Shown one piece after another: positions 2,342 through 8,784 of a stretch of 64,000 nucleotides of DNA. Positions within the stretch are counted from its first letter, which is position 1. Every line of letters begins with the position of its first letter. The stretch spans positions 372,001 to 436,000 of the forward strand of contig JBDOQK010000016.1 in NCBI GenBank assembly GCA_040437565.1. The letters run 5' to 3'. This DNA comes from Albugo candida. Lineage: Eukaryota. The notes under the pieces were generated by a model that was not told where the DNA came from, searched no databases, and worked only from the letters and a program-made list of their open reading frames with translations. The position numbers and the translations under genes were made by a program.

Positions 2342-5300
2342 CTACACAGCCAAACATAACGCTCGATCTATATCAATACCATTGAGCCGACAGCAGCCGA
2401 TAACCCTTTCCGGAAGCTCTTCTTCTGTTTCTCCTTGTAGAACAAACGCGATATCAATCACCAAACTCGCAGTCTTATTCAAAAGCAAATGGATGCCACG
2501 ACGTGCGACATACGAAAATGTGTGAAGATCCACAACCATCTCAATATTCCCATCTTCGTACTGGTACAATCGGTGTTGTGGTCGCGTGAGTACAGGCGTG
2601 GCGTTATGGCTGTGCAATAACCGCTTTGCAACGCCACTGATGCCACAATCTTGTTCATTGGCAACTTGGGCAATCACTTTGAATCGATCGATTATAGCGG
2701 CATTCTTCTCGTTCGTTGCAGTCAAGAATCGCTGGAGAAGACACAAGTATCCGTCTGTGGGGTTTAGCATTTCGGAAAAGATTTTCTCAGGAATCCGCCA
2801 ATAAAGCACAAGATTATATCCCGGTCCGTCGGCATTGGCATCACCCCACATGGTCGGGCTGTAATGTGGAAGCTGGGCATTGATGATGAAAAGTCTGTCC
2901 GATTGGTCAGGAAGCTCAATATGTGTGAGTATTCGGTCGACTTTACGCTCCGTTCGGAATAAATCGGCTCCAATATATTCGAAGAGAGCTGTATCGGACG
3001 CCTATCAAAGAAATTAGACAAATCAAGAAGCTCCGGTTTGCATGAATCACCTCTTTTCGTCTTGACTTTTTGTAGTCTCGACTACGCACTTGGAAGGTTT
3101 GAGCATCCACAGGGAGGCAGCAATGTGATGAGACGGATAATGCATCGCGATGAAACATTGATGAGCCCAGTGGTATCCTCTGAGCACTTGAGCGAGCAGC
3201 TTCACAGTCCAGTCGAAAGCTACCGGTTGAGTCGATTTTCGAATGTTGTGGATTTGTGTGGCTTGGACCATGAAGGCAGCAGATTTCTTTATTTGGACAC
3301 GATTCCGATGACTTTTTAGAATTGGAAATATCCGAAACAATTCGTTGTTTGACATGGAAATGACGGTCAAAATCGTAGATTTGTTCTCGCATAGGGCCAT
3401 ATGAAGCCAATACGAAAAAGAGACTTGCAATGGCCGCAACCAGCAATTTCGACATCACATTCTCACTTGCAAAGCACTTTACAGCAATGATATTAACAAT
3501 GAATCCGACGATACAGCATTCCTTTTGACCAACGACACACACTTGGAATTTCCACCTCGTACGTCCTGTCGATGGCGGAAGACAATTGATACGCGGAAGA
3601 GAAAGAACAGGCTTGACGGCAGCATGATTTGGTCGCGGCGGCAATTCTTGCTCGACTGCCGATTTGCCTGAGGCCTCTTGATTAACAGCTGTGGATGTCA
3701 TCCCCATTCGATCGTCTTTCAAAATCTCAGTCGTGATACTCGGATCGATTTCGTGATCTTCCTTGGTCACAAAATCCTCTGCCTCCTGTAACTTTTGTCG
3801 ATACAGTTGTTGATGGGAGAGCACTGGTGCTACAGCTGCAAGGTCAATTCTTCATCTTCGTGACAGAAAAGTGTGCTTACTTGTAGCCTTGTTCTGCACA
3901 TGTTTTCGGTCAATCGCTTCTGACAGTGCATGTGTCCACCGTTCAAAGTCGTTTTCATTATCAGCGCACAGCTACAGCGACGATCCATCAAATTGGCCCG
4001 GCAGGAAAATAAGCAGCATCTTGCTCACCTTGTACTGGACGCCACGTTTGGAGCCAATCCCGTCCAAAGAGACACTGGAAACTTGAAAAAAGTATTGCGT
4101 TGGTGCATTTCTGGCGAGCGATTTTTCAAACAGCAGAGAAGCACTCTCCAAATTGAGGTCGATCTCGCCACGAAACCACGGATGTGTCTTGTTCATGTAC
4201 AGCAAAGTCTGCGGCTTGTCATTCCACCTGGTTTCAATGTAGTGTTCACCCGAGCTGGAGGTGTTGGAAACGGTCGTGCCGCCCGACTCATTCGAAGGGA
4301 CAGGAATTGCATGGGTAGAGCCCATTTCCGTCTCAATATTCAAATTCTCATCTTTTGCCCCCGGTATCGTACTTTCACCATGAGTCAAGCCAGCTTCTGG
4401 TTGCGTGGTAACGAGACCCGGAGCTTGATCTACCTGACGATCAGGCGGCATTCCCAGTTCCACATCATCCATTTGCACGACATTACCATTCGGAGAAGCT
4501 TCCATGTAATTTGCTGGATTATATCGATAATACGAAAGCACTCCAATCTGACGATCCAACACAAACCAGCGCCGATGCCAAGATCTCTTCGACCACTTTC
4601 CGTCGCTTATTTTGTGCAAATATCCACACACGTAATATCTACTAGATCGAGAGTCTGATGAGAAGAACCCACCAGCCATGAGGGAAGCCGAAACAGAATC
4701 AAGCTCTGGTGCTGAAGGTCGACCGGAGAAGGTTGTGATCGGAGATGAAACAGTCTGATGTTTTCCGCCATGAAGTATACTTCGTCCAACATTGCCGACA
4801 CGAGAAATTCCACCATTAACAGCCTTACCAAAACGCCCCATATTTGGTGCATGCCGTTTACCTCGCCGTCGACCATTATGTCCTGTTGGAGTTTTTACTA
4901 CACCAGAAGCAAGTTTTGAAGATTGCGGATGAGCATCCTGAGGAACGTCCATAGAGTGTACTCTTCCTCTATTTTCGTTGACAAACTTTCGTTGATGGAT
5001 CACTGGATTGCTCTTGACGCTGAGCGGGTCATTCATCTGCTGAATTTTACTACTCTCCAAGCATTCGTCAAAATCGGAAATTTGATCAGAGTCATAAAGC
5101 TCATCGGAATCCTCGCCGCTGTCTTCTCCACTAACAAAGTCAAAGCTTGCAAAGCGAGTGGAATGCCCCTCACGACACGTCGGGCTATGATCGAGTCGAC
5201 CATCATGAGTTTCCGGGTGAATTATGTCTTCGTCTGTTTGCGAAGCTGGAGGAAGATGTCGGGCGATAAACTAGAGCGAGTATCTCAGCTAGCTCTCGAG

Positions 5301-6518: not shown

Positions 6519-7616
6519 CTAGCTATTGTGAGTAATGCCGTCTTGAGCGAGGGACTCGAGTAGCTGCTTTGCAACCTCATTGGTCCTAATCTTAGCTTTT
6601 TCCAGACATTGTTTTAGGATATAGGGTGATAGTAGCGTTCCACCGGGTTTGTATACGCCACAGAGCTGCAAGTATAAGTGATATCAACAAAGGAGACTTG
6701 AGAAAAGAAGACATCTTACCTGATTATCTGTGGTATGAATGATGTTGAAGGTGGAAGATGCTAGACCTTCTTCCTCACTGCTTGGGTCAATGAGAACTTG
6801 ATCATTTACAATGGCGAATGAAGTAGCACACAAAAGATGCTGCATTCTGAGTGGTCGGGATTCTTCATCTACCTCCAAGTCTCAATAAATCTCAAGTCAA
6901 ATTTCTACTTGTAGCGTACCTGGATCAATCTCAACTTTGTGGTCCACCTCAGATACCAGCGTTGCTGGTAATCGCAAGGTTTGAAGTGCTGCCATGATAG
7001 ACAACAGCGATACTTCTAAAATATTTCCATCGTAATCGACGCAATATACGTCAATCATCACATTCCACGCTGATTTTCCCTCTTCGATGCACAGTTGAGT
7101 GAGATCGATCATGCGAGTTCTGTGCCAAATAGTGAGCCTTCTAGTACACACAACTGATGCTGTGTTGCTTACCGTCGAATAATTCGAGAAATATGACTAC
7201 TGACGGCATTCGCTTCCTCACATGCACGTCCAACGTTATATCGAGTCGAGCAAAGTGGTGTCAAATGAATTTGGACAGCTACAATCGCAGTACTCTGAAA
7301 ATATGAACAGAAGAAAGTATCAATGCATTCATTTGGTAATACCTATATCTCCTTGCTCTTGAGTATCAATAGTGGGCGTCCCCACCGCCAGTCGTATGCC
7401 AGTAATGACCGAGGTGTTCTCGAGCTTCACTAAACTTGAGCTATTGCAGCTACTAATGACATTTCTTTGCAAGTGTAGCGTCCGACAGGAGTTAAAGCTA
7501 CGTGCGTCAGTTCGTATCTTATTATCGAGGCACTTTGTGATGTATTCCTCGACGAATAACTTGCGATACACAGACGGAGCAAAATTGACCGCGATCGTAT
7601 TTGTTGGTGTCGTCAT
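6519..7616 (-). CDS. RRP43: Exosome complex RNase PH-like subunit RRP43 (EXOSC8), spliced
   Basis: EEYITKCLDNKIRTDARSFNSCR...SSLVKLENTSVITGI; AWNVMIDVYCVDYDGN; LIDPSSEEEGL; last exon LCGVYKPGG...NS*. Confidence 0.85.
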
Positions 7617-7690
7617 GTCTAGCAAATAGTGTTGCGTACACCAGACGGAAGCTGAATTGGCGTGTTTTCCTTAATTCCGTCCTGTCATCG

Positions 7691-8505
7691 ATGGTGAGCT
7701 GGGGAGAACTTATTTTAACGCTCACTGCGGCGAGCTATGTAATAGGAAGAAAAGAGCTTCCAAAAATTGGTAATATCGCTGGTATGTACACTGGTAGAGC
7801 TGTTGGAGCAATCATTCGCGCGAAAAAAGAGTTTTTTGATGCAACAAAAGATAGCAAAGTCGTTCAGGTAGCTGATGCTGTCACAATCTCTTCGCTAATG
7901 TACGATGACTTGAATTTTTATATCAATGTAGATGCAGCGAGAATTGCAAAAGGGTATCGACGAACTGAATGATATTAGACGTGAGTTGGCGAGTGTGGGA
8001 AGCATCAAGAGACCTTATCAGCCAGAAGGTAGCTTGAACAAGGCCGGGACCGACCAAAAGGATATTCAGTCAGGACCAGAAGCAACAAATAAAAATGCGG
8101 TGGCTTCCTCGGGGATGTATCAAAAGAATATATCAAGACCAGATCATTCAACATCCGCATCATGGGGATCGAGTTTATCGCTAGCATCCAGTCACTTGCT
8201 CGAATCTTCTGATGCTTCTCATTTTGAAAACGACGCTGCTGCTTTGGCAATTGCAGAAATGAAGCTTTCACGTCGCGATAATACGTATACAACACGGATA
8301 GGTGCGTTGAGATTATGTCATTTGATCACCAATCATTAAATCACTCACTATAGAAAGCTTGGAAGGAGGCGCAGACTACGTATCGGCATCTATTGTTGAT
8401 AGCTTATTAATCAAACCCTTATGCGAAAGTGGTGATGAGAAAAAGTCACATAAAGGCTGTAGCTTGCAAGTTCTTGATGAAGTAGACGCCAAAAAAGTTG
8501 AATAG
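7691..8505 (+). CDS. tatB: TatB-like twin-arginine translocase subunit (mitochondrial type), 3 exons
   Basis: MVSWGELILTLTAASYVIGRKELPKIGNIAGMYTGRA matches the TatA/B signature (E in TM, G-hinge, LP amphipathic helix). Introns 7868-7931 and 8302-8353. C-terminal GGADYVSASIV. Confidence 0.75.
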
Positions 8506-8784
8506 CACAATTCATCCATAAACCGATAATTGATTGTATGCGTATACTGGCGCCTCGCTATTGGTGCTGCTACTAATCAGTAAACAGCAGATCAGCTAAT
8601 TCAACGACTATCCGACGCACGATAGCGGAATAGTGCATTCGTGGGGAGTAGATCATTCTCCGATTATAATTTCTATCAATTGATACTGTCTAAAGCATTG
8701 CAGAATTGATCTTGCACGAAGTCGGCATCCACGGGTGTCAAAACGCTCTGTGTTTGCCTCATCTGTTAAGCATATACTGAAAAG

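Follow-up and report, generated by a model that had tools for sequence, protein, structure and literature searches.

A stretch of 64,000 nucleotides (nt) from Albugo candida (contig JBDOQK010000016.1 of assembly GCA_040437565.1, forward-strand positions 372 001 to 436 000; the whole stretch is called the window here, and all positions are counted from its first letter) carries, at 7691–8505 on the plus strand, a gene for a TatB-like protein of the twin-arginine translocation (Tat) type. Most probably (we put the probability at about 0.75), and judging from sequence comparison, this gene is the A. candida member of the nucleus-encoded eukaryotic TatB family of the plant mitochondrial TatB (mTatB) type, a diverged homologue of bacterial TatB. 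The layout of its product is common to a wide eukaryotic family: a 15-residue hydrophobic helix with a polar Glu, a Gly hinge with L-P, a 60-residue helix, a variable linker and two conserved C-terminal helices, with the N-terminal ∼70 residues matching TatB models. A nuclear TatB has been in print for this species since 2018, as a computational prediction. Our analysis adds a transcript-backed gene model, explicit profile statistics for TatB, the exposure of misleading names among the orthologs, a Glu-to-Thr change and a family-wide C-terminal motif.

The gene is real, nuclear, spliced and transcribed. Its model rests on spliced transcripts, because contigs of two runs skip both introns: the X1 contig (record 2, 831 nt) and the X3 contig (record 4, 813 nt) span 7601/7642 to 8529/8588 and omit exactly the 64 and 52 nt introns. 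Both runs come from one study and are labelled ‘RNA?’, which is a guess, as no listed run is recorded as RNA; a DNA-like contig of run X7 is colinear with the window, introns included. The coding sequence (7691–7867, 7932–8301 and 8354–8505) gives a protein of 232 amino acids (aa), which is identical to P0004 (‘unnamed protein product [Albugo candida]’, 232 aa, NCBI) except at residue 223, which is Leu here and Phe in P0004. This difference matches a C>T variant at 8473 that is present in run X7, and is allelic. The preliminary description of this DNA, made from the letters alone, had proposed such a three-exon protein, and all the sequence strings that it quoted are present in the spliced product. 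Protein database searches found a single family member in A. candida, and the window itself is AT-leaning, with a GC content of 0.40–0.45.

Exon 1 (7691–7867; residues 1–59, MVSWGELILTLTAASYVIGRKELPKIGNIAGMYTGRAVGAIIRAKKEFFDATKDSKVVQ; 100% identical to residues 1–59 of P0004) encodes the short membrane helix, the Gly hinge and the start of the long helix. It is followed by intron 1 (7868–7931, 64 nt, GT..AG, phase 0) and by exon 2 (7932–8301), which opens with MQRELQKGIDELNDIRREL and encodes residues 60–182 plus the first base of codon 183: the end of the long helix (to residue 82), a low-confidence variable linker (83–153) and the start of the conserved helix 154–174. Intron 2 (8302–8353, 52 nt, GT..AG, phase 1) interrupts codon 183 (Glu; base 8301 plus bases 8354–8355), and exon 3 (8354–8505) supplies residues 183–232 and the TAG stop, and contains SLEGGADYVSASIVDSLL. 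The 3′ untranslated region covers at least 8506–8588, where the X1 contig ends (an X5 contig reaches 8597). The 5′ untranslated leader covers at least 7601–7690, a minimum extent because the contigs, which begin at 7601 (X3) and 7642 (X1) and are colinear up to the ATG, do not fix the true 5′ end of the transcript. The interval from the upstream stop (7586–7588) to 7691 contains no in-frame ATG, and from 7601/7642 onwards the transcript contigs follow the genome colinearly; the protein therefore lacks an N-terminal extension or presequence and begins MVSWGE. The divergent upstream neighbour (6897–7670, minus strand) has pieces of an RNase_PH domain and looks like an exosome subunit; its contigs reach 7614 and 7670, and there seems to be an overlap of some tens of bases between the two transcripts, which lie head to head.

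That the protein is a diverged TatB homologue, detectable via profiles, is supported by searches of increasing width. A search with the whole protein gave 31 homologues at E ≤ 0.01, and every named one is from an oomycete (genera Albugo, Pythium, Globisporangium, Phytophthora, Peronospora, Hyaloperonospora, Bremia, Plasmopara, Lagenidium and Achlya). An alignment of 18 oomycete orthologues was turned into an oomycete-only profile, which found 275 proteins at E ≤ 1e-3, 50 of them at E ≤ 1e-10, among 1.84 billion representatives. Among the 150 relatives listed, 134 were scanned against Pfam (two oomycete proteins already used and 14 short fragments were excluded), and TatA_B_E (PF02416) is the sole recurring family: it matches 18 of the 134 at E ≤ 0.01, eight of them at or above the gathering score of 21 bits. 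Aligned with hhalign to a profile of 14 TatA_B_E-positive relatives, the oomycete profile scores 99.7% (E 3.6e-26, 88 columns). A family profile built from a 27-sequence alignment of the wider eukaryotic family scores 95.5% with E. coli TatB (E 1.4e-8) and 53% with E. coli TatA (E 1.4e-4). The preliminary description had made the TatB identity depend on a profile match to TatA/B; these two alignments (99.7% to the TatA_B_E relatives, 95.5% to E. coli TatB) provide it, and the identity is supported through profiles, direct scans giving nothing (Pfam) or scores far below the cut-offs (NCBIfam).

Individual members of the family point in the same direction. The TatB model TIGR01410 matches 18 of the 27 (best E 9.3e-15), against five of 27 for the TatA/TatE model TIGR01411, and ranks first in 11 of 12 family proteins scanned; among the 18 oomycete members it matches four (best E 0.0056). 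P0189, a protein found by the family profile (E 3.9e-6), exceeds the TIGR01410 cut-off (67.6 versus 56.5 bits), and the oomycete-only profile aligns with it at 77.9% (E 1.8e-5). Where members of the wider family carry names, they are proteins of green algae, some labelled ‘Sec-independent translocase’. As a lead only, the nearest ESM Atlas clusters are ‘TatB-like’ proteins of Streptophyta (∼233 aa, score 0.94, 212 of 256 features), with PF02416 in 61% of cluster members and the same family set in 29 of 30 matches. The part of a preprint available to us holds that plant TatB-like proteins and TatB have no common ancestor; our profile results argue against separate ancestry for the family as a whole.

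Judging from the start positions of the profile matches, about 141 of the 150 listed relatives have no presequence. The other nine or so (e.g. P0073, P0075, P0080, P0081, P0092 and P0105) have 30–95 extra residues ahead of the TatB-like helix, with ‘QRRTF’ just upstream of the helix in three of them; these extended relatives may form a branch in which a targeting extension was gained, or their start codons may be wrong.

The architecture of the protein was modelled with AlphaFold on the 27-row family alignment (mean predicted local distance difference test score, pLDDT, 69; 81–96 across residues 1–80). The model has a helix at 4–17, a break at 18–22, a single long helix at 23–82, a low-confidence linker at 83–153 and helices at 154–174 and 188–208. 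The membrane helix (residues 4–18, WGELILTLTAASYVI, 7700–7744; pLDDT ∼90 for the modelled helix) carries the polar Glu6, and the mean hydrophobicity of residues 1–18 is 0.57. Behind it lie the hinge G19-R-K-E-L-P24 and a basic helix (residues 19–50, 7745–7840), delimited by family conservation, charge and the alignment to TatB; residues 20–50 contain seven K/R versus three D/E. Aligned to E. coli TatB, Glu6 falls on Glu8, Gly19 on Gly21 and Leu23-Pro24 on Leu25-Pro26 (segment LGPQRLP).

Conservation in these regions is, as far as the alignments go, far beyond chance. Residues 1–82 and 160–201 are strongly conserved among the 18 oomycete orthologues, with a variable part between them; within residues 1–82, 31 positions are invariant, and the residues found in all 18 include G19, R20, E22, L23, G31, G35, R36, G39 and the string GGADYV. 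In the family of 27, G19 and P24 are each kept in 26 sequences and G31 and G35 in all 27, and the polar membrane position is Glu in 18.

The GGADYV string belongs to a conserved C-terminal motif, GGADYVSASIVDSLL (8365–8430, plus strand), which lies inside the predicted helix 188–208. As GGADYVxASIxDSLL in oomycetes, it recurs family-wide in the form G-(A/S)-x-h-h-x-x-x-h-x-(D/E/Q)-S-L, where h is hydrophobic: it is aligned in 23 of the 27 family rows, with G188 in 24. The strict pattern is found in 40 of 127 relatives of at least 150 aa and in none of the 127 reversed sequences, and the plant-like P0115 and P0137 have a variant just beyond it. Many non-oomycete profile matches extend to position 195 or further, and both the ‘LAxAE’ helix and the GGADYVxASIxDSLL helix persist from oomycetes through green algae to plant-like sequences. 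The alignment to E. coli TatB stops at residue 36, and the conserved C-terminal helices have no aligned counterpart there. We found no mention of the motif in those portions of the plant mTatB literature that were at hand, and it may be in print (Carrie 2016, Schafer 2020). A speculative idea, which we hold to be rather improbable, is that the two C-terminal helices are a eukaryote-specific working part that couples a TatA-less TatBC to a single cargo, for example by gripping the folded Rieske domain or by attaching to a late complex III intermediate; on this view, Phytophthora and downy mildews, which have lost the membrane Glu, would have a changed contact with TatC.

Several results weigh against assignment to TatB, most of them from direct scans. 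With Pfam, neither the three exon products nor the whole protein match any family at E ≤ 10, and TatA_B_E is matched by none of the 18 oomycete orthologues. With NCBIfam, four of the five weak matches of exon 1 are Tat models, but the best is a TatA model (E 9e-4) that scores 18.7 bits against a cut-off of 62; the whole protein matches three Tat models at E 0.009–0.16, and the best TatB model for P0004 (NF001212, E 0.0091) scores 16.3 bits against a cut-off of 195. The protein thus reaches no curated TatB cut-off, the models being built for bacteria, and no scanned eukaryotic member passes that of TIGR01410 either (best 54.9 versus 56.5 bits). Used alone, the oomycete profile matches E. coli TatB insignificantly (0.7%, E 0.077) and E. 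coli TatA slightly better, though still insignificantly (3.4%, E 0.013); sequence searches of PDB with exon 1 and with the 18-orthologue profile returned no Tat chain. Two positions also deviate: the TatB-type Glu of the membrane helix is kept in seven of the 18 oomycetes and replaced by Thr in ten and by Gln in one (the exchange to Thr falls in Phytophthora and downy mildews, i.e. Peronosporaceae), and in all 18 the hinge Gly is followed by Arg, in the place of Pro22 in E. coli TatB.

The helix behind the hinge needs a more cautious wording than it had received. The preliminary description read the N-terminus as a short transmembrane segment, a hinge and an amphipathic helix; the AlphaFold model and the conservation of G19 bear out this order of elements, but amphipathicity is not claimed for residues 23–46, because their hydrophobic moment is not above that of shuffled controls (645 of 2000 shuffles reach it), which likewise counts against a TatB assignment. 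Values up to 0.5 occur at residues 34–51, and 0.63 at 61–78. Structure searches were uninformative because the helix-hinge-helix model is too simple for them: with Foldseek, nothing in PDB matched at E ≤ 0.001 (best E 5.4, unrelated), and VIA-align against 48 161 chains gave generic long helices (Z 6.0–6.5), with no Tat chain among the best 50.

Among known systems, the closest likeness is to plant mTatB (At5g43680; Carrie et al. 2016, via PMC6251230, PMC8662606 and PMC13456617) and its putative homologues in stramenopiles and cryptists, which the sections consulted describe as likewise nuclear, without presequence and with an N-terminal membrane helix. Shared with this type are the G-x-x-(D/E)-L-P hinge, the long helix, the variable linker, the ‘LAxAE’ helix and the C-terminal motif, here in the form G-(A/S)-D-h-h-x-x-x-h-x-(D/E)-S-L; the length stated for At5g43680 in the published description consulted, to which this comparison was made, is also 232 aa. 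The oomycete branch differs from it by the Arg instead of Pro after the hinge Gly and by the lack of ‘FD’ after Met1, and the Peronosporaceae by Thr in place of the membrane Glu. With E. coli TatB (b3838; TIGR01410), the first 36 residues align, and a short membrane helix followed by a long helix behind the hinge is common to both; unlike it, the Albugo protein stays below all curated cut-offs, has no equivalent of Pro22, has extra conserved C-terminal helices in comparison with bacterial TatB and is encoded by a nuclear gene with introns. E. coli TatA/TatE (b3836; TIGR01411) belongs to the same superfamily and has the same helix-hinge-helix start, but the match to TatA is weaker, the length is 89 versus 232 aa, and TatA has Gln where the Albugo protein has Glu. 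The AAA-ATPase pathway of Bcs1 in yeast and mammals shares, according to the excerpts available to us, the presumed cargo (Rieske) and a membrane step; it is unrelated in protein and mechanism, and may coexist with Tat.

Published work makes an oomycete mitochondrial TatB plausible. In the sections available to us, Petru et al. 2018 (PMC6251230) report a nuclear putative mitochondrial TatB in “stramenopiles (like oomycetes)” and also in cryptists; the oomycete proteins were found with plant mTatB as query, and the legend of Figure S1 lists ‘Ac - Albugo candida’. According to the same sections, every TatB-positive eukaryote has a mitochondrial TatC, and TatA, TatB and TatC were not found together in any mitochondrion. 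The gene tatC (formerly ymf16) is present in 10 of 10 Phytophthora mitogenomes compared (PMC7224479); our literature search found no Albugo mitogenome paper with tatC. For Arabidopsis, excerpts of three papers (PMC8662606, PMC5855863, PMC13456617) describe a TatBC with mTatB (At5g43680) that moves the folded Rieske protein over the inner membrane. TatA and TatB are treated as one family in the texts consulted, with a bifunctional TatA in two-component systems, and a single protein serving both roles has been suggested there for plants.

If the gene product is a TatB of the plant type, it would sit in the mitochondrial inner membrane with its short helix docked on mitochondrion-encoded TatC and its long helix and C-terminal part in the matrix. 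Import without a presequence could rely on an internal signal formed by the membrane helix together with the basic helix that follows. Such a signal would resemble that of Bcs1. The TatBC pair would carry the folded Rieske protein through the inner membrane, by analogy with what is reported for Arabidopsis mTatB. One protein may act both as TatB and as TatA, a dual role that is possible because no mitochondrial TatA is reported alongside TatB.

Whether the protein still serves a translocase is the main point on which another explanation has to be weighed. It could be derived from TatB and no longer be a translocase subunit, for example an inner-membrane scaffold or assembly factor, with the Rieske protein moved by Bcs1; we consider this unlikely, although it would account for the loss of the TatB-type Glu in 11 of the 18 oomycete orthologues and for C-terminal helices that have no bacterial counterpart. 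It would also fit a finding in the part of Petru et al. (PMC6251230) that was consulted, namely that the machineries of two protists that have TatC alone could not complement E. coli Tat, and the annotated mitochondrial BCS1-B detected in Phytophthora cinnamomi (PMC12414984). The last observation bears on the plant-type reading itself, since with an annotated BCS1 in Phytophthora the Rieske role need not fall to Tat, and the contrast with Bcs1 users implied in the preliminary description is accordingly weaker than assumed there; a 2021 review, in the portion consulted, states that Tat and Bcs1 are not mutually exclusive. For plants, Bcs1 is reported to be missing its N-terminal membrane and targeting region. 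Set against a non-translocase role are the invariance of 31 of the first 82 residues in oomycetes, including the hinge and the family-wide G31/G35, the retention of tatC in all the Phytophthora mitogenomes compared, and the plant orthologue, which the passages at hand report as necessary for Rieske insertion.

A different role within the translocase, that of a TatA-type pore or membrane-thinning subunit rather than a TatB receptor subunit, is less likely than a TatB role and in our estimate quite improbable. The exon 1 scan, topped by a TatA model, and the oomycete-only profile, with its lower E-value for E. coli TatA (both values being insignificant), lean towards it, as does the partly consulted literature that places TatA and TatB in one family with bifunctional members. 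Once the wider family is used, however, the profile favours E. coli TatB over TatA by four orders of magnitude in E-value, and TIGR01410 matches far more members than TIGR01411; the long helix behind the hinge, the length of the protein and the Glu, not Gln, at the polar position in Albugo also speak for TatB.

No homologue is named Tat by its source; the names in use are ‘sulfatase-like’, ‘Peroxin-14’, ‘RxLR effector candidate’ and ‘hypothetical’. ‘Sulfatase-like protein’ is used in A. laibachii, P. infestans, P. cinnamomi and Achlya hypogyna (‘Sulfatase’ in P. megakarya), ‘Peroxin-14’ in Peronospora matthiolae, Lagenidium giganteum and Phytophthora oleae, and ‘RxLR effector candidate protein’ in Hyaloperonospora brassicae. 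It is very improbable that any of these names is correct, and the hydrophobic N-terminus is the conserved TatB-like helix. In Pfam scans at E ≤ 10, the sulfatase family PF00884 is absent from the protein and from all 18 orthologues, and Pex14_N (which we take to be the Pfam name of the Pex14 N-terminal domain) is not among the five families found in the orthologues; the protein sequence has no R-x-L-R string, and a tblastn search of the window for a sulfatase gave no match at 1e-3. The sole relative with a sulfatase domain is P0036 (492 aa), with the TatB-like part at residues 1–114 and the Sulfatase domain at 182–431. This is probably two genes merged in one model, and is likely the source of the name ‘sulfatase-like’ on several oomycete orthologues.

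The assignment to TatB matters for how the Rieske protein reaches its place in different eukaryotes. Animals and yeast move the folded protein with Bcs1, and for plants a relic bacterial Tat machine is reported to do this work; the oomycetes, with major crop pathogens among them, seem to have retained parts of that machine, and the gene described here would be its nuclear half. As a target for control, the gene product offers no obvious selectivity, since a protein of this type works in the host plants as well.

Other genes of the window were noted in passing. A protein with a C-terminal EDR2 domain is encoded at 2342–3001 (minus strand), one with three DM10 domains (flagellar type) at 29 596–31 476 (plus strand), and a type II topoisomerase in three reading-frame pieces at 40 441–44 705 (minus strand). 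Two overlapping frames at 37 196–40 071 (minus strand) each have a Tho1/MOS11 C-terminal and an NCBP3 match, the second also a Methyltransf_FA match; they may reflect a unit repeated in tandem or the duplication of a gene. At 46 542–53 402 (minus strand), an uninterrupted frame of 2286 aa combines FKS1 domain-1, 1,3-beta-glucan synthase and a C-terminal sugar-transporter/major facilitator superfamily (MFS) domain (residues 1829–2198), apparently a fusion of a glucan synthase with a sugar transporter.

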